From a virus, in the IMG/VR virus record IMGVR_UViG_3300043788_000114, positions 32,001 through 96,000 of that record: 64,000 bases of DNA. One strand, 5' to 3'. Position 1 is the stretch's first letter, and each line of letters opens with the position of its first letter. Positions 28,456-44,467 of this stretch are shown one piece after another. The notes beneath the pieces are model-generated. The model had not been told where the DNA came from. It worked only from the letters and a program-made list of their open reading frames with translations, and did not search any database. The position numbers and the translations under genes were made by a program.

Positions 28456-28484
28456 TTGACAGGATTTCTGGACCGTGAGAGGAT
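28456..28484 (+). promoter_or_regulatory. Sigma70-like promoter of tRNA array 1
   Basis: TTGACA-17 nt-GAGGAT (weak -10), 7 nt before leader GTG. Confidence 0.6.
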
Positions 28485-28491
28485 TTGAACC

Positions 28492-28560
28492 GTGAAGACT
28501 TTGTGCCTCAGTTCGCTCTCCTCGTATAGCTCATTACTGAGCGGCAGCGGGGGTTCGTGA
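28492..28560 (+). CDS. Attenuator leader peptide 1 (MKTLCLSSLSSYSSLLSGSGGS)
   Basis: 14 consecutive Leu/Cys/Ser/Tyr codons; followed by antiterminator/terminator and Leu/Cys/Ser/Tyr tRNAs. Confidence 0.8.
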   Translation: MKTLCLSSLSSYSSLLSGSGGS

Positions 28561-28589
28561 ACTGAGTCCAGAGTGGAATTCAGTGAAGC

Positions 28590-28622
28590 GGCCTCCGAGA
28601 AATCGGGGGCTTTTTAGTTTTT
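28590..28622 (+). terminator. Attenuator terminator 1
   Basis: GCCTCCGA-GAAA-TCGGGGGC then TTTTTAGTTTTT. Confidence 0.85.
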
Positions 28623-28624
28623 GC

Positions 28625-28709
28625 GCGAGAGTGGCGAAATGGCAGCACGCAGCGGTCTTAAAAACCGTTGGAGAAATCCGTGGGGGTTCAAGTCCCCTCT
28701 CTCGCACCA
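28625..28709 (+). tRNA. tRNA-Leu(TAA)
   Basis: Cloverleaf, loop CTTAAAA, CCA. Confidence 0.9.
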
Positions 28710-28710
28710 T

Positions 28711-28785
28711 GAGCCTGTACCCAAGTGCTAAGGGAGCGGTCTGCAAAACCGTGATGCGGTGGTTGGATTCCACTCAGGCTCTCCA
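28711..28785 (+). tRNA. tRNA-Cys(GCA)
   Basis: Cloverleaf, loop CTGCAAA, U73, CCA. Confidence 0.9.
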
Positions 28786-28796
28786 AGTTTAAATGT

Positions 28797-28886
28797 GGCC
28801 CCGCTGGCGGATTGGCCCAGCCACTAGTCTTAGGAACTAGCGTCCTTAGCCGGACACTGTGGGTTCGAATCCCACCGGGGCTACCA
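28797..28886 (+). tRNA. tRNA-Leu(TAG)
   Basis: Loop CTTAGGA, long V arm, CCA. Confidence 0.9.
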
Positions 28887-28893
28887 AAGTTTT

Positions 28894-28980
28894 GCCGATG
28901 TGCTGGAATTGGAAGACGGACTGCACTCAAAACGCAGCGCGAGCAATCGCATGGGAGTTCGATCCTCCCCATCGGCACCA
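28894..28980 (+). tRNA. tRNA-Leu(CAA)
   Basis: Loop CTCAAAA, long V arm, CCA. Confidence 0.9.
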
Positions 28981-29031
28981 GATTAAGGCCGTATTAGGCG
29001 ACGAACTAAATTTAGTCGTGCGGCTAATTTT

Positions 29032-29119
29032 GGAGAGTCAACCGTTGAGGCTGACGGCGCGGTTTGCTAAACCGATGGTTCCCTTTGGGAATGGGCATCG
29101 TGCGCTCGGCTCTCCGCCA
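29032..29119 (+). tRNA. tRNA-Ser(GCT)
   Basis: Loop TTGCTAA, long V arm, G73 CCA; atypical T loop. Confidence 0.85.
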
Positions 29120-29141
29120 TGTTTGTGCAGTAAACGTGTTT

Positions 29142-29229
29142 GGGGAGTAAACCTGTCGGGCGACAGGGCTCGTCTGGAAAGCGATGCGGACCCATCGGGT
29201 TTGCGTTTCGAGTACGCTGCTCCCCGCCA
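29142..29229 (+). tRNA. tRNA-Ser(GGA)
   Basis: Loop CTGGAAA, long V arm, G73 CCA. Confidence 0.85.
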
Positions 29230-29230
29230 C

Positions 29231-29318
29231 GGAAGCGTTGGGCATTTGGCAGGCCCACCCCGCTCGAAACGGGACACACCGCAAGGTGTTGGGGATTCGA
29301 CTTCCTCCGCTTCCGCCA
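29231..29318 (+). tRNA. tRNA-Ser(CGA)
   Basis: Loop CTCGAAA, long V arm, G73 CCA. Confidence 0.9.
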
Positions 29319-29324
29319 CTGTTT

Positions 29325-29414
29325 GGATACGTTAGGCATGTGCCAAGCCTACCCCGTTTGAAGCGGGACGCTCCTGAAAGGGACTTGGGTGTTGGACTCA
29401 CCCCGTATCCGCCA
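29325..29414 (+). tRNA. tRNA-Ser(TGA)
   Basis: Loop TTTGAAG, long V arm, G73 CCA. Confidence 0.85.
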
Positions 29415-29419
29415 GATGT

Positions 29420-29506
29420 GCAGCGTATGACCGGGCGCACGGTCACCGCTCTGTAAAAGCGGCGCTCATTCGAGCATGGGGAGTTGAAGCCTCTCACGCT
29501 GCACCA
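29420..29506 (+). tRNA. tRNA-Tyr(GTA)
   Basis: Loop CTGTAAA, long V arm, CCA. Confidence 0.85.
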
Positions 29507-29561
29507 GAGATGTATAATTGGGGTGTCAGGTGCGTGAACACCCGGCTTACGCCAACCGGAA

Positions 29562-30404
29562 ATGAGGTTTCCGATGACACCCCAAGAGCAAAGTGTACCA
29601 GCGCCAACGAAGTGGTGCCAGAAGCATCTACACGAAATCTCAATATCTACGAAAAGATGCCAAGAATGCCGGAAGGCGTATTTTCGGAAATACAGAACGC
29701 TTAACAGAGAGCACCTAAATTCTCTTGATCGAGAACGGTATCGAAAAAAACACGAAGGCCAACTTCGAAAGTATAATGGCTCTCCGGGCGGTATCGCCAG
29801 AGCGACCAAATCACGTCGCGAGGCTCTCGATAAGTATTACTCCAATCCAAAGATTTGCAAAAATTGCGGAGGCCCAATAGTCGTCAAGGATGGCGAGAAG
29901 ATTCCGCAAGCAAGGAAGCGAACCTTTTGCACACGGCGGTGCGCTGCCATTTTTAACAATCATTTACGGAAAAAAGAACGAGCGTGCAAGACCTGCGGGG
30001 GAGCAGTACGCAGAACAAGCAAGAGAATGCGTAACTACTGCGACGACTGCTTAAATGTGAAACTCCTTGCGATTACTGGAAAAATATCGAAACGTGCGTT
30101 ATTTACACGGAGAAATGGGTACCAATCGGCACGGTCGCAAATCCGAAGACACGCAGAGACGGTGTTCAATCGCTCCGGAAAGAAGAAGGTCTGTGCCATT
30201 TGCGGGTATAGCCTGTACGTTGAAATCGCTCATTTGCGAGCGGTGGCCGATTTTTCTGAGGACGCGCTCATTGAAGAGATCAACGCGGTAGGTAACTTAA
30301 TAGCCTTTTGCGCCAATCATCATTGGGAATTTGACAACGATAAACTTGTCGAGGATAATGTAACGGCGGAGTGGACTGGAGATGGTTCCAGCTTGGTCTC
30401 ATAA
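29562..30404 (+). CDS. HNH endonuclease with Zn fingers
   Basis: Several CxxC; CAICGY...EIAH...NLIAFCANHHWEFD; 3' end overlaps tRNA-Met. Confidence 0.8.
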   Translation: MRFPMTPQEQSVPAPTKWCQKHLHEISISTKRCQECRKAYFRKYRTLNREHLNSLDRERYRKKHEGQLRKYNGSPGGIARATKSRREALDKYYSNPKICKNCGGPIVVKDGEKIPQARKRTFCTRRCAAIFNNHLRKKERACKTCGGAVRRTSKRMRNYCDDCLNVKLLAITGKISKRALFTRRNGYQSARSQIRRHAETVFNRSGKKKVCAICGYSLYVEIAHLRAVADFSEDALIEEINAVGNLIAFCANHHWEFDNDKLVEDNVTAEWTGDGSSLVS

Positions 30405-30442
30405 GCCAAATCACGGCGGTTCGATTCCGCTCTCCGCAACCA
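30365..30442 (+). tRNA. tRNA-Met(CAT), initiator-like 1:72 mismatch
   Basis: Loop CTCATAA, unpaired G1:A72, CCA. Confidence 0.8.
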
Positions 30443-30497
30443 TTTCATTGGAGGTTCCCATGACAGATCACTAGCGAAAGGTTGGTGAGAAACTGTC

Positions 30498-30710
30498 ATG
30501 GGAAACGCCCACGCGTGGCGTCACCGGACTGGACGTGGTACTCCCTGTCCTACCGGTTGTCTCTATTGCAAGATGCGTCCCAAGGAAGGCGAACCGGGAG
30601 AGCGGCACAAGAACTACGCCAACAAAAACTCTCGCGGTCGTCGCACTCCACGGGGCAAGCAGAACAACAAGAAGCGCAAGAGTCCAAAGCTCAAACTAGG
30701 AGTCCAATGA
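30498..30710 (+). CDS. Small basic Cys-containing protein
   Basis: 70-aa ORF, start codon buried in a 12-bp hairpin. Confidence 0.5.
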   Translation: MGNAHAWRHRTGRGTPCPTGCLYCKMRPKEGEPGERHKNYANKNSRGRRTPRGKQNNKKRKSPKLKLGVQ

Positions 30711-30759
30711 TCTTCGATCCAGAATTCGGATGGTGGAGGAGTTGGATCAGTATCGATCT

Positions 30760-31225
30760 TGGCGCGTAAGCGCTGAGTGGAGGCCGGGGGCCGCAAGGCA
30801 CTGGGTCCGTTCTCGGACGTAAACCGAGTGGTGGAGGCGGCGGCAACGCCGCCCCTAGTTTTCGAGTACGCATGTAGAAGGTGATGGAGTTTGATTTCGG
30901 ACGTGGGTTCAACTCCCACCGGCTCCACCAAGAAGCACTTGAACGAGAAGCGCCGACTTACGATCATGAACACAACGTCTCTGTTTTCGGCTAACTCAAA
31001 AAAGCGAAGCTCGTTGGCTGTCGCTCAATGGTTCGAGTGTTTCTTTGTGGGGCCGTCACGGTTTCGACGGAATTAGAGGACATCACGCAGTTCATGCCGG
31101 ATGCTGTGGCCCACGAAACGGGACAACAGAAAACTAGGTGCAGAACCATTTGCACTGCCAATGGCTGCTTAAACACCAGTCATTCGAGGGTGGCCGCAAT
31201 ACTCGTCAAAGAACCATGCGGCAAC
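30760..31225 (+). ncRNA. ssrA: Circularly permuted (two-piece) tmRNA; outer ends approximate
   Basis: 3' tRNA-like end GGTTCAACTCCCACCGGCTCCACCA (to 30930) lies upstream of 5' end GGGGCCG..GGTTTCGAC (31049); G3:U70 pair; tag frame AEPFALPMAA* at 31140-31172. Confidence 0.85.
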
Positions 31226-31232
31226 AAATTCT

Positions 31233-31388
31233 ATGCCCGAGAATCGGAGAAAAAAGCAGCGGAGAAGGAAAGTCCTGCGACAAATCGAGCGGCGCAGGCA
31301 GTTCCAGCGAGTCAATGAAATCCTGTTGCGCTCCGCTTTCGGGGTAGAATGGAAAAAGTACCGCCAGCGTGGAATCGCGGTGCCGTAA
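31233..31388 (+). CDS. Small Arg-rich protein (not in ORF track)
   Basis: MPENRRKKQRRRKVLRQIERRRQFQRVNEILLRSAFGVEWKKYRQRGIAVP. Confidence 0.4.
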   Translation: MPENRRKKQRRRKVLRQIERRRQFQRVNEILLRSAFGVEWKKYRQRGIAVP

Positions 31389-31393
31389 GTTTC

Positions 31394-31469
31394 GGGGTCG
31401 TAGCTTAATTGGAAAAGCGCTTCCTTGTCACGGAAGAAGTCGAGGGTTCAACTCCCTTCGATCCCGCCA
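31394..31469 (+). tRNA. tRNA-Asp(GTC)
   Basis: Loop TTGTCAC, G73 CCA. Confidence 0.9.
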
Positions 31470-31660
31470 AGTTTGGAGATGACATGTCCAAGAGATGGAG
31501 AAAGCGCCAAGCGAGGATGGCAGCGACAGCCGCCGCGCAGCCTGCTGTTACGGAGCAACCTGCGGCGCAACAGACAGCACCTCCGCCCGCTGCCCAGCCT
31601 GAACGCGTACAGAAGATTCCTACGTGGCCATGGCGTGCGGTAGGGTAGAGAAAAGTTTTC

Positions 31661-31735
31661 GTCCCTGTCTGCTAGAGGCGAGGCATCCGCGTTCTCATCG
31701 CGGCAACATCGGTTCGAATCCGATCAGGGACGCCA
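31661..31735 (+). tRNA. tRNA-Glu(CTC)
   Basis: Loop TTCTCAT, CCA. Confidence 0.9.
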
Positions 31736-31739
31736 AGTT

Positions 31740-31834
31740 GCGCGGCGGCGAGACAGCCGTCAGTATTTGCGTCGAGTACATCTGAGCTACCCGCTATGGA
31801 GGTAGACGCAAGTCGATCATCTGACTAGCCGCGC
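31740..31834 (+). ncRNA. Unidentified structured RNA between tRNA-Glu genes
   Basis: Nested helices GCGCGGC/GCCGCGC, GTCAG/CTGAC, TTGCGTC/GACGCAA, CTACC/GGTAG. Confidence 0.5.
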
Positions 31835-31843
31835 TTCGTTTAT

Positions 31844-31917
31844 GGGGTCGTCTTCTAACGGTAGGAAAGCTGATTTTCGCTCAGCTAATGCCGGTTCAAC
31901 TCCGGTCGGCCCTTCCA
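31844..31917 (+). tRNA. tRNA-Glu(TTC)
   Basis: Loop TTTTCGC, CCA. Confidence 0.85.
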
Positions 31918-31938
31918 ATTTTCATCCCGGAGGAACCC

Positions 31939-32178
31939 ATGCACAGCGTCTATGTGGAATACGATGGCGGCATCAACGCCGCGACCGATGAGGCAATCTA
32001 CGCTGCGGTAGGTTATGTGTTCGACGGCCAAATAAAGTGCGACTCGGGTTGCATGATTGGCGGTACGCAAACTCGCGATCTGGTCTTCCGATTTGAGGAT
32101 GGCGAGCAAGCCGCCAAGGCCGCAAGGAAACTGCGGGAACTGTCGGATGTGAGAGTCAACACGGCGATGGTGGCATAG
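31939..32178 (+). CDS. Hypothetical protein
   Basis: GGAGG SD before ATG 31939. Confidence 0.6.
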   Translation: MHSVYVEYDGGINAATDEAIYAAVGYVFDGQIKCDSGCMIGGTQTRDLVFRFEDGEQAAKAARKLRELSDVRVNTAMVA

Positions 32179-32280
32179 AGTTGCGCGGGCCGAGGGATGC
32201 TGCATACTGAGGAGCGAAGGTATGCAGCCCGAGAGGTTTGCAGACTCCCTGCTCTTTTTGACGGCCCGCTGCAAAACGTA

Positions 32281-32310
32281 AGGCCCACAGATGTTCTTGT
32301 GGGCCTTTTC
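32281..32310 (+). terminator. Intrinsic terminator between convergent units
   Basis: AGGCCCACAG-loop-TTGTGGGCCT then TTT. Confidence 0.7.
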
Positions 32311-32346
32311 GTTGAGCAACCTCTCGCAAGGTGAGTTGATTTTACC

Positions 32347-33141
32347 TTACTTCCAGCGCCTACCGCTGGATGGCTTCTTCGGAGAGTGTGGCCGTGCTGG
32401 TACCGGAGGCACAGGAACACTTGGAATCGCCCTCACTGTGGCTGGACCGGTGAACACCCCGACGCCAACAGGATCATCATCCGTCTCAGTCTTCATTCCA
32501 ACCGAACAACGCATCATCGGTGTGGTGTTGTCGTGCAGGAACGATTCGGACTGTGATGCGGAAGATCGTGCCATGTTTGCCGACGCAAACGCCATCGTCG
32601 CATAGGTCGCACGGGCGTTCTGGGCGTTGTAATTCGCCGACGCTCCGACTCCTACTCCCAACGAACTGGCCTCGTTCCACGTTTCCGGTTGCGTGCCAAG
32701 ATAGGTAAACGTCCAGTTGCCACGCTTGATCCGGTCGTCGATTGCCGCGTGAAGCGCCGTCTTTGAATATTCCTTGCTGGAGTTTTCCTCCCCATCCGTC
32801 ACGATCACGACGATAGCCTTGTCGAATGTGATGCTCTTGTCGTCATCGAGTGCTTGGAGAGTTTTTCCAACCGCATCATAGAGCGCGGTTGCTCCGCGCG
32901 GGCCGTATTTGGCAAGTTCGTCGCCGTCTATCTTGGCGATTGGAACCCCGAGGTACGGCGCATCTATTTGCGTGTCAAACGTGGTGAGCGAGAACAGATA
33001 CTCAACCTCGTTGTCCTTCTGTTGATCGGCCTGCATGTCCTTGACATAGGTCTTGAATCCGCTCAAGGTTTCCTGCCAAACGTTGGCCATGCTGCCGCTA
33101 CGATCCTGAATGAAACTGATTAGGACCTTCTTCATCTCCAT
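32347..33141 (-). CDS. von Willebrand factor A domain protein
   Basis: DRSGSM MIDAS, G.TALYDAVG, IVTDGEENSS. Confidence 0.85.
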   Translation of the reverse strand: MEMKKVLISFIQDRSGSMANVWQETLSGFKTYVKDMQADQQKDNEVEYLFSLTTFDTQIDAPYLGVPIAKIDGDELAKYGPRGATALYDAVGKTLQALDDDKSITFDKAIVVIVTDGEENSSKEYSKTALHAAIDDRIKRGNWTFTYLGTQPETWNEASSLGVGVGASANYNAQNARATYATMAFASANMARSSASQSESFLHDNTTPMMRCSVGMKTETDDDPVGVGVFTGPATVRAIPSVPVPPVPARPHSPKKPSSGRRWK

Positions 33142-33362
33142 CTCCTTTTTCTGACGTAGATTGTGTGGGGCTTGAGATCGAGATGCGCAACCAAGTCCTT
33201 AGATGGAGGCCGCACGCCGTTGTATACCTGAGAAAGGTAGGAAGCAGAGACGCCAAGCGAACTCGCGTACTCTCGAAGACTGCGTTCGCCTTGGTCCTGC
33301 TTCAATTCACCAACGACCTGATCGGTTTCCAGTGTTTCGTCCATCTCTTCCTTGCGCCACAT
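33132..33362 (-). CDS. Cro/CI-type HTH regulator, paralog of 27684..27896
   Basis: QGERSLREYASSLGVSASYLSQVYNG. Confidence 0.8.
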   Translation of the reverse strand: MWRKEEMDETLETDQVVGELKQDQGERSLREYASSLGVSASYLSQVYNGVRPPSKDLVAHLDLKPHTIYVRKRRWR

Positions 33363-33370
33363 GAGAGCTA

Positions 33371-33389
33371 GTTAAGCATTGTGCTTAAC
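33371..33389. promoter_or_regulatory. Palindromic operator between divergent promoters
   Basis: GTTAAGCA-TTG-TGCTTAAC inside the minus-strand TTGACA promoter of the HTH gene. Confidence 0.6.
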
Positions 33390-33445
33390 GATTGTCAAGA
33401 GAGAAAATCATTGACACCCTCCCTACGCGGCGCTACTCTTCTGGC

Positions 33446-33667
33446 ATGGCAGACTCCGCCGCGCAGCCGATTATCGATCTTGCCAACTCTTGGATGAACA
33501 AGGCCAAGAACATTGAGGACAAAATTGTCGGCACCCCCGGCAGGATCAAAACCAGCACATCGCCCAAGCCTCCCGCAACCACGTGGCACGATGACCGGTA
33601 CAAAACGACCGATCAAAAGGCGGCACCCCGCAAGGCCGCTCCCCGGAAGAGAACGTCGAGCAAGTAG
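33446..33667 (+). CDS. Small basic-tailed protein, probably leaderless
   Basis: TTGACA-17-TACTCT 6 nt before ATG; ends KAAPRKAAPRKRTSSK. Confidence 0.6.
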   Translation: MADSAAQPIIDLANSWMNKAKNIEDKIVGTPGRIKTSTSPKPPATTWHDDRYKTTDQKAAPRKAAPRKRTSSK

Positions 33668-33669
33668 GC

Positions 33670-33897
33670 ATGGCGCTTGAGACGGAACTCGCCTTCTTCG
33701 ACTCCCACCGCACCGAGTGGACAGAGCATCACAACGCCAAGTTTGCCGTCATTCAGGGCAAAAAGCTGCTCGGGTTCTTCGACGAGTGGGAAGATGGATT
33801 CAAGGCTGGGATCAAAGCCTTCGGCGGCAGACGCGAATTCCTCGTGAAGCAAGTGTGGATCGTCGAGCCGGTTTATGTTATCGGGGCGGTTGCCTGA
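33670..33897 (+). CDS. DUF5678-like small protein
   Basis: LETELAFF...KFAVIQG...FLVKQV pattern. Confidence 0.5.
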   Translation: MALETELAFFDSHRTEWTEHHNAKFAVIQGKKLLGFFDEWEDGFKAGIKAFGGRREFLVKQVWIVEPVYVIGAVA

Positions 33898-33974
33898 AAA
33901 AATAGGCAACAATTACCTTGACTTACCCAATACCTGTGCTATTCTTGGGTTAGCTTAAGTAAAGGATTGCCGAT

Positions 33975-34931
33975 ATGTTTGAGCCTAAAACACTTGCCGA
34001 AGCTATTCGCTACTACAGCGATGAGCAGACGTGTATCGACGTGGTTGCAGGTCTCCGCTGGCCAGATGGCAAGCCGGTATGCCCGAAGTGCTGGACGGCT
34101 GAGGGCGAGCGCAAGCACTACTGGCTCAAGACCCAAAAGCGGTGGAAGTGCTATGCCTGCCGCAAGCAATTCTCGGTCAAGGTGAACTCGATTTTCGAGG
34201 ATTCGGCCCTCAAACTGTCGGATTGGCTTATTGGCCTCTGGATGCTTGTGAACTGCAAGAACGGCGTGAGTAGCTATGAGCTATCGCGGGCCACGGGGAT
34301 CGCTCAGAAGTCAGCGTGGTTCGTTCTACAGCGCCTTCGTTACATCCTCAAGGCAGTTGACCATCGGCCCTTGGGAACGCCGGGGCCGGTCGAGGTAGAC
34401 GAATGCTATCTCGGCCCCGACGCACGCACGATGCACGCGGACAGGCGAGCCAAGTTGCAACTGGCGACAAACGGCTACGCGAAGAAAACGGCTGTGATCG
34501 GTCTGCTCGATCGCAACACGCGGCAGGTCCGAGCTGAGGTCTTACCGGAAGTCACACGCGATGTGCTGCAAGCGCGGATTCTCAAGCATTGCGGCAAGGG
34601 AACGACCGTGTACACCGATAGCCACGCCGGATACGACAACATGGATTCGCAGCGTTTCGTCCACGAAACCGTGAATCACATGATGGAGCATGTACGCGGC
34701 GATGTTTCGACGCAAGCGATTGAGAATTTCTGGTCGTGCCTCAAGAGAACACTGACCGGGACGTACATCGCGGTCGAGCCTTATCACTTGGACCTGTACC
34801 TGAATGAGCAGGTCTACCGCTTCAACAATCGCGTGAATAAAGACGATGGTCAGCGTTTCAGAAAGGCACTGAGCATGATCGGGGATCGCAGACTGACTTG
34901 GAACCGGCTTACCGGGAAGGAGGGGGCCTGA
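33975..34931 (+). CDS. IS1595 (ISXO2-like) transposase
   Basis: RWP...CPKC...CYACRKQFSV Zn ribbon; VEVDECY, VYTD, VNH, IENFWS.LKR, YLNE..YRFN. Confidence 0.95.
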   Translation: MFEPKTLAEAIRYYSDEQTCIDVVAGLRWPDGKPVCPKCWTAEGERKHYWLKTQKRWKCYACRKQFSVKVNSIFEDSALKLSDWLIGLWMLVNCKNGVSSYELSRATGIAQKSAWFVLQRLRYILKAVDHRPLGTPGPVEVDECYLGPDARTMHADRRAKLQLATNGYAKKTAVIGLLDRNTRQVRAEVLPEVTRDVLQARILKHCGKGTTVYTDSHAGYDNMDSQRFVHETVNHMMEHVRGDVSTQAIENFWSCLKRTLTGTYIAVEPYHLDLYLNEQVYRFNNRVNKDDGQRFRKALSMIGDRRLTWNRLTGKEGA

Positions 34932-34933
34932 TT

Positions 34934-37802: not shown

Positions 37803-37878
37803 GCGGGCGTAGTTCAATTGGCAGAACGTCGGAGTGCCACTCCGAAGGTTGCCGGATCGTTGCCGGTCGCCCGCTCCA
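37803..37878 (+). tRNA. tRNA-Gly(GCC)
   Basis: Loop GTGCCAC, U73 CCA. Confidence 0.85.
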
Positions 37879-37969
37879 ATTTGAAAGGGTAGTTGCAATG
37901 GAACACAGGATGATTTTGATGAGCCCGGACTTGAAGGAAGTCCACAGAGTTGTAGTTGTAAGACGCAAG

Positions 37970-38044
37970 GCACCATTAGCTCAACAGGCAGAGCACGGGA
38001 TTCGTACCCCCGAGACTGGCGTTCAAGTCGTCAATGGTGCTCCA
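37970..38044 (+). tRNA. tRNA-Thr(CGT)
   Basis: Loop TTCGTAC, CCA. Confidence 0.85.
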
Positions 38045-38094
38045 CAAGATAGCGAGCCGTCAGAATAGCGACGATTCGTTATGTAAGGCCGCGA

Positions 38095-38171
38095 GGTATG
38101 GTACGGCCCGGTGATGTGAGCCGCGGCGGGGCATGGCAAGGCTTGGTATGGTCAGGTAGGGTGTGGCATGG
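38095..38171 (+). repeat. GGNNN pentanucleotide-periodic tract
   Basis: GG at exact 5-nt spacing in 14 of 16 units. Confidence 0.8.
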
Positions 38172-38716
38172 GCAGTTTAATGCGTAGATCGGTGCTTCAG
38201 TTGAACGCTTCACTAGAAGCGATTCGCATTATTTCTGCAAAGAGGGCTTTGACTTTGTTGACTAAGGGCAAGGCCCTCACTGAGGTTTCGACGGGGATTG
38301 AGATTTATCCCGGCGTGTTCTTGCCTAGCGTGATTAGGCTTCGGCACTACGCGAGGGTTCCGCATAAGAGGCCGATTCCTTCGAGGAAGAATATCTTTGT
38401 CCGCGATGGGAACCGTTGTCTTTACTGTGGGGCCAAGGGACCGAAGGTTACTCTTGAACTTGAGCATGTTATCCCGAGGTCAAGAGGAGGACAAGGGTCG
38501 TGGGACAACTTGGTTTCGGCGTGCCACGAGTGTAACCAGAAGAAGGGTGATCGTACACCACAGGAAGCTGGAATGACTCTGATTCATCGTCCTTTGCCAG
38601 CGACGGTACACACAAACCGTTTCGTGCTTAAGCAACTTGGGGAAGAAATTTCTGAGTGGAGTCCATTTTTGTGGCAGGACAACAAGGGCGACACTCGCTT
38701 TCAGTTTGTGCATTAG
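38168..38716 (+). CDS. HNH endonuclease (McrA-like)
   Basis: VLQLNAS...PSVIRL...RKNIFVRDGNRCLYCG...EHVIPRSRGG..SWDNLVSACHECNQKKG. Confidence 0.9.
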   Translation: MGSLMRRSVLQLNASLEAIRIISAKRALTLLTKGKALTEVSTGIEIYPGVFLPSVIRLRHYARVPHKRPIPSRKNIFVRDGNRCLYCGAKGPKVTLELEHVIPRSRGGQGSWDNLVSACHECNQKKGDRTPQEAGMTLIHRPLPATVHTNRFVLKQLGEEISEWSPFLWQDNKGDTRFQFVH

Positions 38717-38737
38717 GATGGTGATCCTAAGTTTTGA

Positions 38738-38812
38738 GCCTCGCAAGCATTGCCGTCGATGCGCCGGTCCTGTAAATCGGTGAAGCCAGTTAGACTCTGG
38801 CGCGGGGCTCCA
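38738..38812 (+). tRNA. tRNA-Thr(TGT), C33
   Basis: Loop CCTGTAA, CCA. Confidence 0.8.
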
Positions 38813-38822
38813 TAACTTTCAT

Positions 38823-38898
38823 GGAGCGATTGGCCGAGAGGTAAGGCACCAGATTGTGGCTCTGGTATACGTGGTTTCGAGTACCACATCGCTCCCCA
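38823..38898 (+). tRNA. tRNA-His(GTG)
   Basis: Loop TTGTGGC, G-1:C73, CCA. Confidence 0.9.
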
Positions 38899-38906
38899 AT
38901 TTTTAC

Positions 38907-38987
38907 GGGCCGTGGAACTGCATGGGGTGGTTGCCTCTCTTGCAAAGAGGAAATGTCAGGCGAGTTCGATTCTCGCACGGTCCACCA
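38907..38987 (+). tRNA. tRNA-Ala(TGC)
   Basis: Anticodon TGC, G3:U70, CCA. Confidence 0.85.
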
Positions 38988-38993
38988 ATTATT

Positions 38994-39239
38994 ATGAAGC
39001 GACCGAAGTGTACGAAAGTCGATTTCATTGTCTGCGGTCGCATCGACGATCCGAGGACGAACAATGCTCCCGGATCGGAACTCAGGAAGTGCTCTGAGTG
39101 TGAAAGTGAAGTGAGGATTCATCCGACAACTATCGACGCGAAGATCAATGTACCGATCCTGTGTTTGCAGTGCGCACTGGCCAAGATGGAGTGTTCGGAA
39201 GAGGAGATGGAAGAGCAGGGAACAAGATTGCAGGTTTGA
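38994..39239 (+). CDS. Small Cys-rich protein between tRNAs
   Basis: CSEC...CLQC. Confidence 0.5.
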   Translation: MKRPKCTKVDFIVCGRIDDPRTNNAPGSELRKCSECESEVRIHPTTIDAKINVPILCLQCALAKMECSEEEMEEQGTRLQV

Positions 39240-39246
39240 AGATTTC

Positions 39247-39321
39247 GGACTCGTAGCTCCAATGTAGAGCGGCACGTTGAAGCCGTGCGCGTTGCTGGTT
39301 CAAGTCCAGTCGAGTCCACCA
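39247..39321 (+). tRNA. tRNA-Phe(GAA)
   Basis: Loop TTGAAGC, CCA. Confidence 0.9.
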
Positions 39322-39329
39322 AGTTTTAA

Positions 39330-39403
39330 CAGGGCGGAGCGCGGTCTGGCAGCGCACCAGTTTCGGGAACTGGCGGTCGGAGGTTCAAATCCTCTCGCCC
39401 TGA
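39330..39403 (+). tRNA. tRNA-Pro(CGG), CCA not encoded
   Basis: Loop TTCGGGA. Confidence 0.85.
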
Positions 39404-39478
39404 CGGGGATTAGCTCAGAGGCAGAGCATTCGCTTTGGGAGCGAAGGGCCGGGATTTCGAAATTCCCATCCCCGACCA
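39404..39478 (+). tRNA. tRNA-Pro(TGG)
   Basis: Loop TTTGGGA, CCA. Confidence 0.9.
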
Positions 39479-39490
39479 TTTTGAAGATGT

Positions 39491-39566
39491 GGGCTGTTAG
39501 TTCAACTGAAGAGAATATCGGTCTACGAAACCGAAGATGGAGGTTTGAGCCCTCCACGGCCTACCA
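39491..39566 (+). tRNA. tRNA-Arg(ACG)
   Basis: Loop CTACGAA, CCA. Confidence 0.9.
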
Positions 39567-39587
39567 AAAATAAACTGCGCTTTTCTA

Positions 39588-39616
39588 TTGACGCGGTTTG
39601 GGAATAGCGATAACGT
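39588..39616 (+). promoter_or_regulatory. Promoter of Y-RNA/Ro60 unit
   Basis: TTGACG-17 nt-TAACGT. Confidence 0.7.
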
Positions 39617-39620
39617 TGAT

Positions 39621-40158
39621 TTTGTCGATGGTGAAGTTTACGGATACTTCTCTTCCAAAGAAAACCTCTGTGAGCGTTTGTTCCTCGACAAAGATTTGCG
39701 GTTGGTGTAGTTTCAGTTACTTCTTAATCAGCAGGTCACGGGTTCGAGTCCCGTCAAGCAGCAATGCTTGTAGCTCAGTTGGTAGAGCAGCCGAGGCGAA
39801 AGCCAGTACCCTGAAGCGCCTGTTCCGCCGCAATAAAGTTCTCCGGTAGTGAAGAGGACGGTTACTTCACTCGAAATGAAAAACAACCGTTTTCGCTTGT
39901 TCTCCGGGGATTAAGTATGAGCCGTAGTGGTCGTAAGGGTTACTTCTTGGTTCGATTCCAAGGTTGGAAGCAATTCCTACCTGCCGATTGGTCGGCTACC
40001 CCTTGCAAATGTTCTCGGCTCTCTAAGTTCGGGTTGGTGTAGGAAACAGTTACTTCGCCTGTGGAGCGAGTAGTTCGGGTTCGAATCCCGGCGTCTTCTT
40101 CGGAAGATGTAGTGTAATGGCAGCACGCTTACGTCACTGTTCCGTCTGTTCCGCCCGA
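39621..40158 (+). ncRNA. Five tandem Y-RNA-like (YrlA-like) RNAs: 39621-39692, 39696-39833, 39840-39910, 39919-40021, 40029-40158
   Basis: Each has paired ends and shared TRGTG, GWTACTTC and TGTTC motifs; units 2 and 5 (4 partly) hold T-arm, capped acceptor-like stem, D-arm; adjacent to Ro60 gene. Confidence 0.75.
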
Positions 40159-40168
40159 TACTACTCAG

Positions 40169-40203
40169 AGAGCCTCTGCTTCGGCAGGGGCTTTTCTATT
40201 TTT
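40169..40203 (+). terminator. Intrinsic terminator between Y RNAs and Ro60 gene
   Basis: AGCCTCTGC-TTCG-GCAGGGGCT then TTTCTATTTTT. Confidence 0.85.
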
Positions 40204-40220
40204 CACCGGGAGGGTGAACG

Positions 40221-41645
40221 ATGCGTACAAACGTAGCAGAAAAGAAGGCGCTCATCTACACGCACGAGGGCGCAGTGGCGGTGTTCATCAACCCCGTCGA
40301 TCAGCTTCGCCGCTCTGTCATGGCGAACATGTTATGGGAGGACGAGTTCTACGAGGATGGCCAGTCCATTGCAAAGCGGATTCAGGAAACGACCGCCGAA
40401 ATCCTCAAGCAGAAGAACGGCGCGCAGACCGTGGCGGACATTGCGTTTGAGGCCCGCACGAAGATGAAGCTGCGTCACGTCCCGTTGCTTCTATTGGTTT
40501 CGCTCATCCGTGCGAAGACCGATCAGACACGGAAGGTTGTGGCGGAAGCCATCGCGCGTGTGGTCCAGCGGCCAGACGAGATGGGTGAATTGATCTCGCT
40601 CTACTGGAAGCTGAATGACAAGCGTGCCATGTTGCCGCACCAGATGAAGATCGGCCTCGCGGCGGCGTTCCAGAAGTTCGATGCCTACTCGCTCGGAAAG
40701 TGGAACTCGGATGCGGCGGCGGTGAAGCTGCGCGACGTCCTGTTCTTGACGCACGCGAAGCCGAAGGATCAGGCACAGGCAGAACTCTGGAAGAAGTTAG
40801 CGGAGAAGACGCTGGAGTCGCCGGATACGTGGGAGGTGGCTCTCAGCGGCGGTGCTGACAAGAAGGAGGCGTTCACTCGTCTGCTCGCCGAGGAAAAGCT
40901 GGGTGCGCTGGCGCTGCTCCGAAATCTGCGGAATATGCAGCAGGCCGGTGTCGACGTTGAGGCGATCCGCAAGGGTCTCGGAACGATGAAGACAGAGCGT
41001 GTTCTTCCCTTCCGCTTCATCACGGCGGCAAAGTACGCTCCGCAGTTGGAGCCTCAGCTTGAGCAGGCCATGTTCCGGTGCCTCGCAAGTCAGGAGAAGT
41101 TGACGGGCAAGACAGTCTTGATCGTCGATTGCTCGGGATCGATGCATGGCGGAATCTCTGCCAAATCCGAACTGGACCGTCTCAGCGCGGCTGCTGCATT
41201 GGCTATGCTGGTGCGTGAGGTCTGCGAGGATGTTGCCGTGTACGCGACGGCGGGTGACGATGGTCGGCGCATCCACGCGACGATGCTGGTTCCTCCGCGT
41301 CGTGGTTTCGGTTTGCGTGATCTGCTTTCCTACGAGAGCACGAGCCGCAAGATCGGCGGAGGTGGAATCTTCTTGAAGCAGGTGATTGAGTACGTCCGCA
41401 AGGAAGAGAAGGACACGGCGGACAGGATCATCGTCATCACCGACGAACAGGACTGCGATCTGGTAAACAAGCCAGCAAGCGCCAAGCCATTCGGGAAGAA
41501 CAACTACCTTATCAACGTGGCTAGCTTCAAGAACGGCATCGGCTACGGAGAGTGGGTCCACATCGACGGCTGGAGTGAGGCGATCTTGGATTACATCCAG
41601 CAGTACGAGCGGTTGCAGGAAACCGGCAATGAGATTTCTGCCTAA
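40221..41645 (+). CDS. rsr: Ro60/TROVE domain ribonucleoprotein (Rsr-like)
   Basis: THEGA, EFYEDG, LRHVPL, DAYSLGKW, LRDVLFLTHAKP, TWEVALS, ALLRNLRNM, LPFRF, vWA DCSGSM and ITDEQ. Confidence 0.9.
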   Translation: MRTNVAEKKALIYTHEGAVAVFINPVDQLRRSVMANMLWEDEFYEDGQSIAKRIQETTAEILKQKNGAQTVADIAFEARTKMKLRHVPLLLLVSLIRAKTDQTRKVVAEAIARVVQRPDEMGELISLYWKLNDKRAMLPHQMKIGLAAAFQKFDAYSLGKWNSDAAAVKLRDVLFLTHAKPKDQAQAELWKKLAEKTLESPDTWEVALSGGADKKEAFTRLLAEEKLGALALLRNLRNMQQAGVDVEAIRKGLGTMKTERVLPFRFITAAKYAPQLEPQLEQAMFRCLASQEKLTGKTVLIVDCSGSMHGGISAKSELDRLSAAAALAMLVREVCEDVAVYATAGDDGRRIHATMLVPPRRGFGLRDLLSYESTSRKIGGGGIFLKQVIEYVRKEEKDTADRIIVITDEQDCDLVNKPASAKPFGKNNYLINVASFKNGIGYGEWVHIDGWSEAILDYIQQYERLQETGNEISA

Positions 41646-41665
41646 TTTCCCTTGGTACCATTTGC

Positions 41666-41917
41666 CTAAAGGGCACGGCTCAACACCGTGCCCTTTCTTT
41701 TTGCCTTCTCCAGTCGCTTGCGCGCCGCGTCGTTGCGGATCGCCAAGTTGAGCCCGCTGGTGTAGCTGAGCACGAAGGAGCCACGAGTTCCTTTGAGCCG
41801 GAAGATCATGTATCCCGGCTTGAGTTCCACGATGATCTGCCGCTGGCGTCGCCGGTCGTAGACGGTGTTCTCCGTCTCGACGATGAGTTTGGATTTACGC
41901 TGCGATAGCTTGCTCAT
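41666..41917 (-). CDS. Small basic hypothetical protein
   Basis: GAGGTG SD; FRLKGTR motif. Confidence 0.55.
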   Translation of the reverse strand: MSKLSQRKSKLIVETENTVYDRRRQRQIIVELKPGYMIFRLKGTRGSFVLSYTSGLNLAIRNDAARKRLEKAKRKGTVLSRAL

Positions 41918-42461
41918 CTGACACCTCCACTATTGCGATCTTCTTTGCGTAGTACCTGACCTTCGTTTCCCACTTCTTCCGGAGCGTGGTGGCACGCTTC
42001 TCGCGCGTGAGCGCCGCCTTGAGCATCCGCTGGCAGTGAGCCAGCTTGGCGTCCGGTGCAGGGCGAGTGGTCGTTACCTTCGGCCTTACCTCCAGCGGTA
42101 GCTCATTGGCCCACGCGTAGATTTGCCGGTAGCTGCCGAAGCGTCCGTACCTTGCCGAGTGACGCATCATGTACTCATCGCGCGCTCCACGCGTGTGAGC
42201 AAGTTCGTGCGCGATCACCATTGCGAAGTCCACCTTATCTGGCGTGCGCTTGGAGAGCCGCACCTTCATCCAGTTCCCTCTAATGCTGGCTTCGCCACTA
42301 GAGTACGTGCTGCCGTTTCTCCGGGTGTATACAACCTTCACATGTAGGGATGGCGCTCCGCGCTTGCATAGATCAGGACGTTCCTCCGGCATCTGCCGAG
42401 AGATGAATGCCCGGATATGATCATCGCGCCAGTGAGTTTTGTTGCTGAGTTTGATTCGCAT
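41895..42461 (-). CDS. Putative zincin-like metalloprotein
   Basis: VIAHELAHTRG (HExxH). Confidence 0.55.
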   Translation of the reverse strand: MRIKLSNKTHWRDDHIRAFISRQMPEERPDLCKRGAPSLHVKVVYTRRNGSTYSSGEASIRGNWMKVRLSKRTPDKVDFAMVIAHELAHTRGARDEYMMRHSARYGRFGSYRQIYAWANELPLEVRPKVTTTRPAPDAKLAHCQRMLKAALTREKRATTLRKKWETKVRYYAKKIAIVEVSDEQAIAA

Positions 42462-42611
42462 AGCCGTGTTTCCCCCTGCATCTATTTTCTCATCGACGAT
42501 TTTTGTAAACTGCGAAATCGCCTGTATTCATGCGGTCTCCGACGTGTAAGTAATTGACAGTACAGTGTCGAAATAAATCTCTTGACAAGAATTTCCCATT
42601 TTGCGGTTAGA

Positions 42612-42971
42612 ATGTTCTGGGGGAGAAAATTGCTCATCATTCTGGCGCTTGTATGGATTCACTTTGTGTCGGATTTTCTGTTGCAGTCCGACAAGATGGC
42701 GATCAATAAATCGAAGAGTTGGAAGTGGCTCGGCATCCATTGCGTAACGTACTCGACGCCGTTCCTGATCTTCGGCTGGCGCTTCGCGCTGGTCACCCTT
42801 GCTTTCCATTTCGTGACGGATGCGATCACGTCGCGTGGCACAGCGTACCTGTGGAAGCGGGAGATGCGACACTGGTTCTTCTCGCTCATCGGCTTCGATC
42901 AGGCGATCCACCTGAGCACGCTGATTTTGACCTACCATTTTTTGCTTGCAAAGAATCTGGAATGGGTGTAG
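42612..42971 (+). CDS. DUF3307 family membrane protein
   Basis: HFVSDFLLQSDKMAINKS...HC..Y...HFVTD...GFDQAIH. Confidence 0.8.
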   Translation: MFWGRKLLIILALVWIHFVSDFLLQSDKMAINKSKSWKWLGIHCVTYSTPFLIFGWRFALVTLAFHFVTDAITSRGTAYLWKREMRHWFFSLIGFDQAIHLSTLILTYHFLLAKNLEWV

Positions 42972-42974
42972 GCT
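42946..42974 (+). promoter_or_regulatory. Sigma70-like promoter of tRNA array 3
   Basis: TTGCAA-17 nt-TAGGCT, 7 nt before leader GTG. Confidence 0.7.
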
Positions 42975-42981
42975 GATTTTC

Positions 42982-43068
42982 GTGCAGATAAGGACCAAAT
43001 CCGTGAACACGAGAATGACCGGGAAGCGGGTCATTTGGGGAATCGTGTCCGGGGGTTTGGGAACCTAA
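42982..43068 (+). CDS. Attenuator leader peptide 3 (MQIRTKSVNTRMTGKRVIWGIVSGGLGT)
   Basis: Contains codons read by all 12 tRNAs of array 3, including ATA, AGG, AGA, CGG, TGG. Confidence 0.8.
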   Translation: MQIRTKSVNTRMTGKRVIWGIVSGGLGT

Positions 43069-43096
43069 TCTGCAACAAGATTCGGAACTCAAAGCA

Positions 43097-43122
43097 CCCC
43101 GGCTCAGGCCGGGGATTTTTTT
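43097..43122 (+). terminator. Attenuator terminator 3
   Basis: CCCCGGC-TCAG-GCCGGGG then ATTTTTTT. Confidence 0.9.
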
Positions 43123-43135
43123 GGTCTTTGAAAAA

Positions 43136-43210
43136 GCGGGTTTAAGCTAGTTGGCAAACTGCCTGCCTCCAAATCAGGACTCAGGGGTTCGATTCCTCTA
43201 ACCCGCGCCA
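43136..43210 (+). tRNA. tRNA-Trp(CCA)
   Basis: Loop CTCCAAA, G73 CCA. Confidence 0.9.
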
Positions 43211-43211
43211 T

Positions 43212-43287
43212 CGCGACGTAGCTCAGGTGGTGGAGCGCCGATCTCATAAGTCGGAGGGCGAGGCTTCGAGTGCCTCCGTCGCGACCA
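43212..43287 (+). tRNA. tRNA-Met(CAT) (elongator Met or Ile2)
   Basis: Loop CTCATAA, CCA. Confidence 0.85.
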
Positions 43288-43293
43288 AGTTTT

Positions 43294-43388
43294 GCCGGAA
43301 TCCTCGGGCGAGGCGCTGGGATTTATAACCCCGGTTGTTGTCGGTAGATTGCCGATGTGCGAGGGATCATACCCCTCTTCCGGCCCCA
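43294..43388 (+). tRNA. Atypical tRNA with TAT anticodon (nominally Ile), long variable arm
   Basis: GCCGGAA/TTCCGGC acceptor, loop TTTATAA, V arm TCGGTA-GAT-TGCCGA, C73 CCA. Confidence 0.7.
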
Positions 43389-43390
43389 GT

Positions 43391-43467
43391 GAGCGCGTCG
43401 TATAGCGGCTGATTATACCTGCCTCTTAAGCAGGCTGACGCTGGTTCAAATCCAGCCGCGCTCACCA
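43391..43467 (+). tRNA. tRNA-Lys(CTT)
   Basis: Loop CTCTTAA, CCA. Confidence 0.9.
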
Positions 43468-43474
43468 AAGTTTT

Positions 43475-43560
43475 GGGATCGTACTCGAATTGGATGCAGA
43501 GACCTGACTTTTAATCAGCGGGGAAACCCAATGGGGGTTCGAGTCCCCCCGGTCCCACCA
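43475..43560 (+). tRNA. tRNA-Lys(TTT) with extra variable stem
   Basis: Loop CTTTTAA, GGG-GAAA-CCC insert, CCA. Confidence 0.85.
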
Positions 43561-43564
43561 AGTT

Positions 43565-43641
43565 GCTCCCGTATCGGCGCTGTCTTCTAAACAGCAGGCC
43601 GTAGACGGATGACGCGGGTTCGACTCCTGCCGGGAGCGCCA
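43565..43641 (+). tRNA. tRNA-Arg(TCT), no canonical D-arm
   Basis: Acceptor, anticodon (CTTCTAA) and T arms intact; only 7 nt between acceptor and anticodon stems. Confidence 0.75.
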
Positions 43642-43647
43642 TGTTTT

Positions 43648-43725
43648 GCCGCTGTACCTCACCCGCCTCCTAAGCGGGATTCGAGTAACTGGATGATGCC
43701 GGTTCAACTCCGGCCAGCGGCACCA
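43648..43725 (+). tRNA. tRNA-Arg(CCT), no canonical D-arm
   Basis: Loop CTCCTAA; same architecture. Confidence 0.75.
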
Positions 43726-43730
43726 GTTTT

Positions 43731-43807
43731 GCTGCCGTACCGGGTCGCCCTCCGAAGGCGAATACCGTAGATGGAGAAGGCAGGTTCGAGTCCTGTCGGC
43801 AGCGCCA
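43731..43807 (+). tRNA. tRNA-Arg(CCG), no canonical D-arm
   Basis: Loop CTCCGAA; same architecture. Confidence 0.75.
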
Positions 43808-43811
43808 GTTT

Positions 43812-43889
43812 GCAGGGTTAACTCAGTCCGCTCAGAGTGCCTCTCCTACAAAGAGGAAGCCGCAGGTTGAAATCCTGCACCCTGCACCA
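43812..43889 (+). tRNA. tRNA-Val(TAC), C33
   Basis: Loop CCTACAA, CCA. Confidence 0.85.
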
Positions 43890-43894
43890 AGTTT

Positions 43895-43969
43895 GCCGGT
43901 CAAGCACATGCGGATGTGTACTCCCTTGGTAAGGGAGAGGCAGAGAGTTCGATCCTCTCGACCGGCCCA
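43895..43969 (+). tRNA. tRNA-Thr(GGT)
   Basis: Loop TTGGTAA; 3' end one nt short of NCCA. Confidence 0.85.
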
Positions 43970-43973
43970 GTTT

Positions 43974-44048
43974 GCCGATGTAGCTCAATGGGAGAGCATT
44001 CCCTTGATAAGGGAAAGGTCAGTGGATCGGTACCACTCATCGGCACCA
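43974..44048 (+). tRNA. tRNA-Ile(GAT)
   Basis: Loop TTGATAA, CCA. Confidence 0.9.
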
Positions 44049-44065
44049 AGTGTAGAATTGCAGGC

Positions 44066-44392
44066 ATGGCTCAATGGGAAGTGACTATACGCGCAAACAT
44101 TCTCATCACAGACGATGATGATGACGAAAACCAGTTTGCTGAGCAGTACACTTTCATCTGGTCCGCGCCCGACTTCATTTCGGCAGTGATGTCAGTCCAG
44201 CAGAAGCTCGACACTTTGAACGAGCGCACGAAGAAGAAGTGGGAAGAGACTGCTCGCAAAGCACGATTCATGGAAGAATACAACATCGTCGGGTTGATCG
44301 AAACCGATCACGTGCTATTCGGCGACAAGTGGATAGATGAGTTCGTAGAACGAGGCGTAATAGATCGCAATTATGCCGAAGATGAAAGTTGA
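44066..44392 (+). CDS. Acidic hypothetical protein
   Basis: ATG after tRNA-Ile and TAGAAT; ORF ends at tRNA-Gly. Confidence 0.55.
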   Translation: MAQWEVTIRANILITDDDDDENQFAEQYTFIWSAPDFISAVMSVQQKLDTLNERTKKKWEETARKARFMEEYNIVGLIETDHVLFGDKWIDEFVERGVIDRNYAEDES

Positions 44393-44467
44393 GCGGGTGT
44401 CGTCCAACGGTAGGGCCACAGCCTTCCAAGCTGTTGACGAGGAGTTCGAATCTCCCCACCCGCTCCA
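44393..44467 (+). tRNA. tRNA-Gly(TCC)
   Basis: Loop CTTCCAA, U73 CCA. Confidence 0.9.

Follow-up and report, generated by a model that had tools for sequence, protein, structure and literature searches.

Predicted leader-peptide attenuators with codons matched to three tRNA arrays of a soil phage

A 64-kb stretch of phage DNA (positions 32,001 to 96,000 of IMG/VR record IMGVR_UViG_3300043788_000114; hereafter the window, or W when compared with other loci) carried three short open reading frames (ORFs), each upstream of an array of transfer RNA (tRNA) genes and each possessing codons read by the tRNAs of its own array. The source record is a 138.5-kb single-contig virus, a soil phage with 54% G+C. 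The layout of the units, the match between leader codons and array anticodons, the co-variation of the two in related loci, and the alternative RNA pairings were observed in silico. Together they suggest, with a probability of about three in four, ribosome-mediated transcription attenuation of the trp/his/ilv type at all three units, with tRNA genes under its control. The phage would probably make a tRNA block only when the codons of the corresponding leader are read slowly.

The three units, all on the + strand, shared a common plan: a -35-like hexamer, 17 nucleotides (nt), a weak -10 hexamer (NANNNT), exactly 7 nt, and a GTG start codon opening an ORF with a G-rich tail, followed 28–33 nt further on by a G+C-rich hairpin with a T tract. 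A preliminary description of this DNA had reported this threefold layout of promoter, GTG 7 nt on, short ORF, terminator, and array, and all of its elements were located; the promoter and start-codon arrangement was read directly in the sequence and then matched by a regular expression. In unit 1, a promoter-like site (nt 28456–28484; TTGACA at 28456–28461, 17 nt, GAGGAT) preceded leader ORF 1 (28492–28560; GTG to TGA, 22 sense codons, VKTLCLSSLSSYSSLLSGSGGS), with a G-rich tail at about 28548–28556 as the predicted antiterminator strand, and an intrinsic terminator (28590–28621; 9-bp stem, GAAA loop, and T tract) lying at most 13 nt before the first tRNA. Unit 2 consisted of a promoter-like site (36558–36586; TTGACA at 36558–36563, 17 nt, TACCGT), leader ORF 2 (36594–36680; GTG to TAG, 28 codons, VMTRFHSDFPATAATQPQGNRSPEMGSQ) with the predicted antiterminator strand GGGGTCTC at 36668–36675, and a terminator-like hairpin (36714–36763) with its 5′ arm at 36714–36728, a GAAA loop, and a weak T tract, CTTCTGCTTT. 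Unit 3 possessed a promoter-like site (42946–42974; TTGCAA at 42946–42951, 17 nt, TAGGCT), leader ORF 3 (42982–43068; GTG to TAA, 28 codons, VQIRTKSVNTRMTGKRVIWGIVSGGLGT) with a tail at about 43049–43054 as the predicted antiterminator strand, and an intrinsic terminator (43097–43122) of 7 G-C pairs, a TCAG loop, and a T7 tract.

A strict promoter scan listed none of the three leader promoters, their -10 hexamers being poor matches to TATAAT. A terminator scan listed the stem-loops at 28590–28611 and 43097–43114, and the 13 nt separating terminators 1 and 3 from the first tRNA leave no room for a promoter. Since the start codon is only 7 nt past the promoter-like site, the leader mRNAs are probably leaderless. 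For leader 3, a shorter ORF from GTG at 43003, preceded by AAGGA, was rejected as the main start; related loci (L001, L002, and L038, see below) have ATG where 42982 lies, and the longer ORF was preferred because the codons ATA, AGG, and AAA require it.

All tRNA genes of the window were found within 28625–44467 on the + strand. With default settings, ARAGORN called 29 tRNAs and a permuted transfer-messenger RNA (tmRNA) in the window, and relaxed thresholds added Ser-GGA, Ser-UGA, Ser-GCU, and Thr-UGU. Array 1 (28625–29506) was composed of Leu-UAA, Cys-GCA, Leu-UAG, Leu-CAA, Ser-GCU, Ser-GGA, Ser-CGA, Ser-UGA, and Tyr-GUA, default settings yielding six of the nine, -ps95 another two, and -ps90 the last (three Ser genes were thus relaxed-only). 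Array 2 (37384–39566) was composed of Asn-GUU, Gln-CUG, Gln-UUG, Gly-GCC, Thr-CGU, an HNH ORF (38168–38716), Thr-UGU, His-GUG, Ala-UGC, Phe-GAA, Pro-CGG, Pro-UGG, and Arg-ACG; ten of the 12 tRNAs were default calls, Thr-UGU appeared at -ps95, and Asn-GUU (37384–37455) was detected by Rfam only (46.3 bits), its anticodon being read from the sequence. Array 3 (43136–44467) was composed of Trp-CCA, Met-CAU, Ile-UAU, Lys-CUU, Lys-UUU, Arg-UCU, Arg-CCU, Arg-CCG, Val-UAC, Thr-GGU, Ile-GAU, an ORF (44067–44392), and Gly-UCC. Eight of these 12 tRNAs were default calls; the other four, Ile-UAU and the three Arg genes, received no call from ARAGORN or Rfam and were read by eye and fold, with homology backing only the Arg genes among them.

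With standard wobble, leaders 1, 2, and 3 covered 9/9, 12/12, and 12/12 tRNAs of their own arrays, recomputation giving the same figures as the preliminary description, and in leader 2 the codons for all 12 tRNAs fell within codons 2–21. Counting default-called tRNAs only, coverage was 6/6, 10/10, and 8/8, while strict Watson-Crick pairing gave 7/9, 8/12, and 11/12. Coverage of the other two arrays was 1/12 and 4/12 for leader 1, 4/9 and 3/12 for leader 2, and 3/9 and 6/12 for leader 3. The match held in a codon shuffle test, a Monte Carlo control with random codon strings drawn from the codon usage of the window's long ORFs, in which the P values for full coverage were 1.45e-4, 3.5e-3, and 3.5e-5 for leaders 1 to 3, respectively; among real in-frame windows of the long ORFs, full coverage was attained by 0/12610, 29/12424, and 0/12424. 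For every leader, the two other frames and the three antisense frames covered fewer tRNAs; leader codons match anticodons specifically in the one reading frame and for the one array.

Most of this signal lies at the amino acid level. The lists previously given of amino acids absent from leaders 1 to 3 were correct as read, and so was the proposed split of Arg, Thr, and Gly isoacceptors between leaders; when synonymous codons were resampled with the amino acid sequence fixed, however, only leader 3 was individually significant (P 0.026, against 0.36 for leader 1 and 0.27 for leader 2). When the 16 units described below were pooled, 206 tRNAs were covered versus a resampling mean of 184.5, and synonymous choice adds to the match in the pooled units because none of 5000 resamplings (0/5000) reached 206. 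Collinearity of codon order with tRNA order was considered and rejected as a general pattern, the mean Spearman rho being -0.16 and negative only in homologous family-2 leaders.

For comparison, related loci, designated here by L numbers, were fetched from IMG/VR, 25 via the neighbouring Ro60/TROVE protein and 80 via RtcB. The main tallies cover 16 leader/array units from 8 phage contigs, including W; kept out of them were L006, whose array touches the contig end, L028 and L038, which were tallied separately, and tRNAs labelled ??? or Stop by ARAGORN, as well as L026, L039, L087, L097, and L103, in which no leader was found and which were counted as negatives. In these 16 units, which are not independent (W and L001–L003 are homologous, and about four architectures are represented), the own leader covered 171/180 tRNAs versus 88/273 for other arrays in the same genome (Fisher odds ratio 40). 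At the amino acid level, 139/139 array amino acids were present in the own leader, whereas among amino acids outside the array 64/181 were present and 117/181 absent. Five further units, from L028 and L038, covered 36/38 array amino acids. When every array was audited for candidate ORFs over the preceding 300 nt, 2–8 turned up, the chosen one being best or joint best every time, and the strict promoter-then-start-codon pattern was observed in 8/16 units versus 1.2% of background start codons.

The search of related arrays also bore out the expectation that leader codons co-vary with array content where the arrays are partitioned differently. The three-unit architecture of W was common to L001, L002, L003, and L038, with homologous leaders kept in frame. 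In L009, a 41-codon leader preceded a 26-tRNA array (coverage 26/26), and a second leader, with Leu, Ser, and Tyr codons, preceded a 7-tRNA array (7/7). In L014 and L028, a Leu/Ser/Tyr/Trp/Cys leader was accompanied by a second leader before an array of 22–25 tRNAs, which covered 19/25 tRNAs in L014 and 15/22 in L028 at the codon level and all array amino acids in both (13/13 in L028.b). L017 had a single 56-codon leader with all 20 amino acids before a 40-tRNA array (35/40). In W, L002, L003, and L014, where the Cys tRNA belongs to the Leu/Ser/Tyr array, the leader of that array has a Cys codon; the Leu/Ser/Tyr leader of L009 has none, the Cys tRNA of that locus being part of the other unit, along with the codon. 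The Trp codon likewise accompanied the Trp tRNA into the Leu/Ser/Tyr leader and array of L014, and a leader of L003 has GAT and GAG, its array continuing into Asp and Glu.

A terminator hairpin was present between leader and array in 14 of the 16 units, at a constant 20–34 nt from the stop codon. The predicted trp-like switch, in which the G-rich tail would pair with the terminator 5′ arm unless a ribosome occupies the last codons, was modelled with transcripts cut just before the terminator 3′ arm and folded under a ribosome mask; full-length equilibrium folding, which could not test a kinetic switch, was replaced by these cut-transcript folds. The complementarity between the G-rich segment at the stop codon and the terminator 5′ arm, reported earlier, was realized as pairing at early stalls. 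In leader 1, a ribosome at codons 2–15 left the tail paired with 8/9 nt of the arm, and in leader 3 a ribosome at codons 2–13 gave 6–7/7 nt (4/7 at codon 9), a sensing window that widens to roughly codon 19 with the 5′ part masked as well. Folded with no ribosome, leaders 1 and 3 showed a 1:2 pairing that sequesters the G-rich tail. The antiterminator of leader 2 formed at stalls on codons 2–21 except codon 6 and was lost from codon 22. With a ribosome at the last codons or stop, pairing of tail and arm was absent in all three window leaders. In 12 of the 14 terminator-bearing units, the 5′ arm paired with the leader tail at early or middle stalls and not at the last 6–8 codons or stop. Matched codons made up 184/265 of the leader body versus 36/84 of the last six codons (odds ratio 3.0, P 1.6e-5). 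The tail:arm duplex had a mean of -14.2 kcal/mol for own pairs versus -11.3 kcal/mol when swapped between units (permutation P 5e-5), and terminator stem sequences varied between homologues with the pairing retained. The specificity of the match, the co-variation in relatives, the concentration of unmatched codons among the last six, the folds, and the co-variation of tail and arm support the ribosome-mediated attenuation proposed in the preliminary description.

Leader translation, a kinetic competition between the two structures, and both the sign and the natural trigger of the response are inferred from these features. Each promoter would yield a transcript with its 5′ end on or beside the start codon of a leader of 22–28 codons, the body of which would act as a roster with roughly one codon per downstream tRNA. 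When the roster is read fast, the ribosome would reach the last codons or stop and cover the G-rich tail, the terminator 20–34 nt downstream would form, and transcription would stop at least 13 nt ahead of the first tRNA. When a charged tRNA is scarce, its codon would be read slowly, the ribosome would stay upstream, and the free tail could pair with the emerging 5′ arm, so that RNA polymerase would continue into the array. Because the tRNAs of the array would quicken reading of their own leader, each block would be a negative-feedback loop, an any-of-N gate on decoding capacity. Candidate triggers are host tRNA pools ill suited to the phage, the loss of tRNAs in infection, and tRNA-cleaving defences.

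Several observations weigh against this model. In the relatives, AGG was absent from three leaders whose arrays carry Arg-CCU, leader L003.3 has three ACC codons with no Thr-GGU gene found, L038.1 lacks Asp and Glu codons despite contiguous downstream Asp and Glu tRNAs, and no convincing leader was observed in five array-bearing contigs (G001/L026, L039, L087, L097, and L103). In the window, 8 of the 33 counted tRNAs rest on relaxed detection or by-eye reading, an HNH-endonuclease-like ORF (36809–37420, + strand) stands between attenuator 2 and array 2 where L002 and L003 have only 79–88 nt, and the hairpin of unit 2, starting at 36714, folds well, yet has a weak T tract and is absent from the terminator-scan list. 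Moreover, neither a leader ORF nor a terminator was found ahead of a further block on the + strand (30365–31917), which consists of a tRNA(CAT) (30365–30442), the permuted tmRNA, Asp-GUC, Glu-CUC, and Glu-UUC and has its own promoter-like site. That site (30331–30359, + strand; TTGACA-17-GATAAT) is strong, with 11/12 matches, and lies directly before tRNA(CAT); it would account for the block in place of a leader. The system does not gate all tRNAs of the phage. A fourth leader before Asp/Glu/Glu was sought and rejected, the small ORFs at 31233–31388 and from 31486 encoding basic proteins that lack the pattern.

Other points of the same kind concern the folds. Under the ribosome-footprint masks that the preliminary description had suggested as a check, full-length minimum-free-energy folds kept the terminator in nearly all conditions, and therefore any switch must be kinetic, as in trp. 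The footprint-only window of leader 3 leaves AAG, CGG, ATT/ATC, TGG, and GGA outside, these codons being included only if trailing ribosomes mask the 5′ part too. Leader 2 and seven other units are predicted to form the antiterminator even without a ribosome, which implies no default termination there; L001.2 had no predicted antiterminator, and that of L014.b was patchy. No terminator follows the leaders L014.a and L028.a, whose ends lie about 20 nt from the first tRNA. Finally, classical attenuators carry runs of regulatory codons, and a leader with a single codon for each tRNA should be sensitive to severe shortage only.

The same attenuators might serve as a counter-defence, sensing tRNAs cut by host anticodon nucleases or other tRNA-targeting immunity and inducing the replacement block. 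Each block would then be an autonomous any-of-N sensor of decoding failure, in which loss of one host tRNA switches on exactly the block that replaces it, and the roster would co-evolve with the block through gain, loss, and relocation of tRNA genes. Both the purpose and this sensor design are considered possible but improbable. The any-of-N design with single codons would be better suited to an almost complete loss of one tRNA species than to mild starvation, the RtcB RNA ligase adjoins the arrays in L002, L014, and L028, the locus also has a tmRNA and a Ro60/Y-RNA-like module, and phage tRNAs that counter tRNA-cleaving defences are reported in PMC10264068 and PMC11464382. On the other hand, a stalled ribosome cannot distinguish tRNA damage from other shortages of charged tRNA, and the sequence holds nothing that separates the two. 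A search for RtcB in the genome of this phage gave 0 matches, the leaders span nearly the whole code instead of the few tRNAs targeted by known nucleases, and the phage has no known host or defence system.

If the leaders are translated and array-matched, they might act by another route, through 5′ processing or stability of the tRNA precursor or through Rho access, and the sign of the response may then differ. The matched leaders L014.a and L028.a without a terminator, the stop codon of L017, which overlaps its only hairpin, and the terminator retained in every equilibrium fold are in keeping with such a route; the terminators of 14/16 units at their constant distance, the ribosome-dependent alternative pairing in 12/14, and the co-variation of tail and arm between units argue for attenuation and make the alternative unlikely. 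That the leaders are small functional peptides or chance ORFs, with terminators that end upstream transcripts and a match due to coincidence or composition, is very improbable: leader 1 does look like a Ser/Leu-rich low-complexity peptide, leader 2 alone has a modest P (3.5e-3), and the -10 hexamers are weak, but such an account is opposed by the joint improbability over the three window leaders, the frame-specific coverage, the 139/139 array amino acids covered, the Cys and Trp codons that relocate together with their tRNAs, and the 13 nt after terminators 1 and 3, too short for a promoter.

Some tRNA genes were of unusual build. Arg-UCU, Arg-CCU, and Arg-CCG of array 3 (43564–43806) have complete acceptor, anticodon, and T arms and end in CCA, with about 7 nt in place of the normal D arm and a variable region of 18–19 nt; Arg-UCU has a 97% identical counterpart in L038, an Arg-CCG gene built in the same way lies at L003:12024–12109, and Arg-UCU is normal in L001. 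The Ile-UAU-like gene (43294–43390) is complete in the same three arms and likewise ends in CCA; its variable arm is long, and its predicted fold gives an anticodon loop of 9 nt. In L009 and L014, ARAGORN calls Ile(tat) genes of 92 nt at the corresponding places. A tRNA with anticodon UUA, which would read the stop codon UAA, was observed at L017:1360–1434, a tRNA-like gene with a four-base anticodon according to ARAGORN at L014:9548–9631, and a UCA-anticodon tRNA on the - strand of L103. In L009 (4600–4735), a promoter-like site fires straight into tRNA-Thr(UGU), and the 41-codon leader begins 9 nt after that tRNA and would ride on a transcript starting with a tRNA. A motif, TCTTTGA(C/A)AA, was conserved past the terminator T tract and ahead of Trp, the first tRNA, in W (43123–43132), L001 (11590–11600), L002 (12808–12818), L038 (after 11350), and L009 (4915–4925); it contains the -35-like TTGACA, with no room for a -10 hexamer before the tRNA.

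HNH endonuclease ORFs were found inside or beside the arrays at four places (29562–30404, 36809–37420, 38168–38716, and 44539–45177). Between arrays 1 and 2 were an IS1595-type transposase (33975–34931) and, on the - strand, a SocA/Panacea-domain ORF (35381–35974). A protein with Ro60/TROVE and vWA domains was encoded at 40221–41645 and is linked to tRNA arrays in several relatives; upstream of its gene were a YrlA-like Y RNA match (39731–39791; at 46.5 bits short of the gathering score, 69) and an odd gene resembling tRNA-His (40032–40101). The two-piece permuted tmRNA (30787–31263) matched RF04321 with 75 bits, and its ARAGORN tag is AEPFALPMAA. The tmRNA copy of L017 matched the alphaproteobacterial tmRNA model with 135 bits, a hint that the hosts of the group may be alphaproteobacteria. 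A search of INPHARED for close deposited relatives returned short tRNA matches only. Among sequencing runs, small shares of the sequence words occurred in only six, all of DNA, with no RNA run listed for this phage.

The preliminary description had known of no such control of phage tRNA arrays, and a full-text literature search, in which subscription journals were not covered, found no paper on leader-peptide attenuators controlling tRNA genes or arrays. The terms attenuat-, leader, and terminator had 0 uses in the available parts of PMC8421152 and PMC10272220, on the Anabaena tRNA operon, and of PMC10264068, on phage-tRNA anticodons. A cmscan of 27000–46000 with E up to 0.1 gave only tRNA, tRNA-Sec, tmRNA, and YrlA matches and no T-box or known leader family.

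Why phages carry large tRNA sets, and by what means these are expressed, has long been debated, with codon compensation, decay of host tRNAs, and escape from tRNA-cleaving defences among the proposed answers. If the attenuation model is true, these phages would gauge decoding capacity for individual codons and produce tRNAs as they are needed, and the debate would become a testable circuit; leader-peptide attenuation would be extended to tRNA genes and to rosters of up to 26–40 sensing codons. The elements are short and modular, and one codon swap should change which tRNA shortage is sensed. Should the blocks also sense immunity, they would add a new layer to the phage-host arms race and provide a natural, re-programmable sensor of single-codon decoding speed.

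The units shared many features with the leader attenuators of enterobacteria. These comprise trpL, hisL, leuL, and pheL and the multivalent leaders thr (Thr and Ile) and ilvGMEDA (Ile/Leu/Val). Present here are short 5′ ORFs of 22, 28, and 28 codons, predicted to be translated and kept as homologous ORFs in L001–L003 and L038, regulatory codons whose decoding would report on the product of the operon, in this case tRNA and not an amino acid, and an intrinsic terminator between leader and first gene in 14/16 units. A mutually exclusive antiterminator occluded by a ribosome at the stop codon was predicted in silico for the three window units and 12/14 overall, with 1:2 pairing in two of the three window units. 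Enterobacterial attenuators, however, control biosynthetic enzymes and use runs of codons for one to three amino acids, whereas the phage leaders have about one codon for each of 9–40 tRNAs. Downstream of the phage leaders are tRNA genes and inserted HNH ORFs in place of genes for amino acid biosynthesis or aminoacyl-tRNA synthetases, and because of this the units are classed as working like the leader-peptide family and not as plain members of it. They differ further in that the product tRNA would act directly on the sensor, the mRNA is probably leaderless, and the system is phage-borne.

The pheM leader of pheST and T-box riboswitches regulate aminoacyl-tRNA synthetase genes by tRNA charging. 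The phage units resemble them in tuning a translation component to the supply of charged tRNA through a choice between terminator and antiterminator, but pheM senses one amino acid, and a T-box needs no ribosome, since it binds a single uncharged tRNA directly. No specifier loop or T-box motif was found in the phage units with the Rfam model, and neither pheM nor T-boxes control tRNA genes. Another parallel is the cryptic trn operon of Anabaena PCC 7120, which, according to the available parts of PMC8421152 and PMC10272220, is a 26-gene tRNA array induced by translational stress and repressed by TrcR. In these sources, as here, an accessory tRNA array that is normally silent would be turned on when translation is impaired, and homing endonucleases and rtcB occur near such arrays; the Anabaena operon is described as controlled by a protein repressor and located on a bacterial megaplasmid, whereas the phage units are predicted attenuators in a phage. 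The predicted mechanism belongs to the textbook class of leader-peptide attenuation, while the tRNA targets, the roster design, and the phage setting are not textbook.

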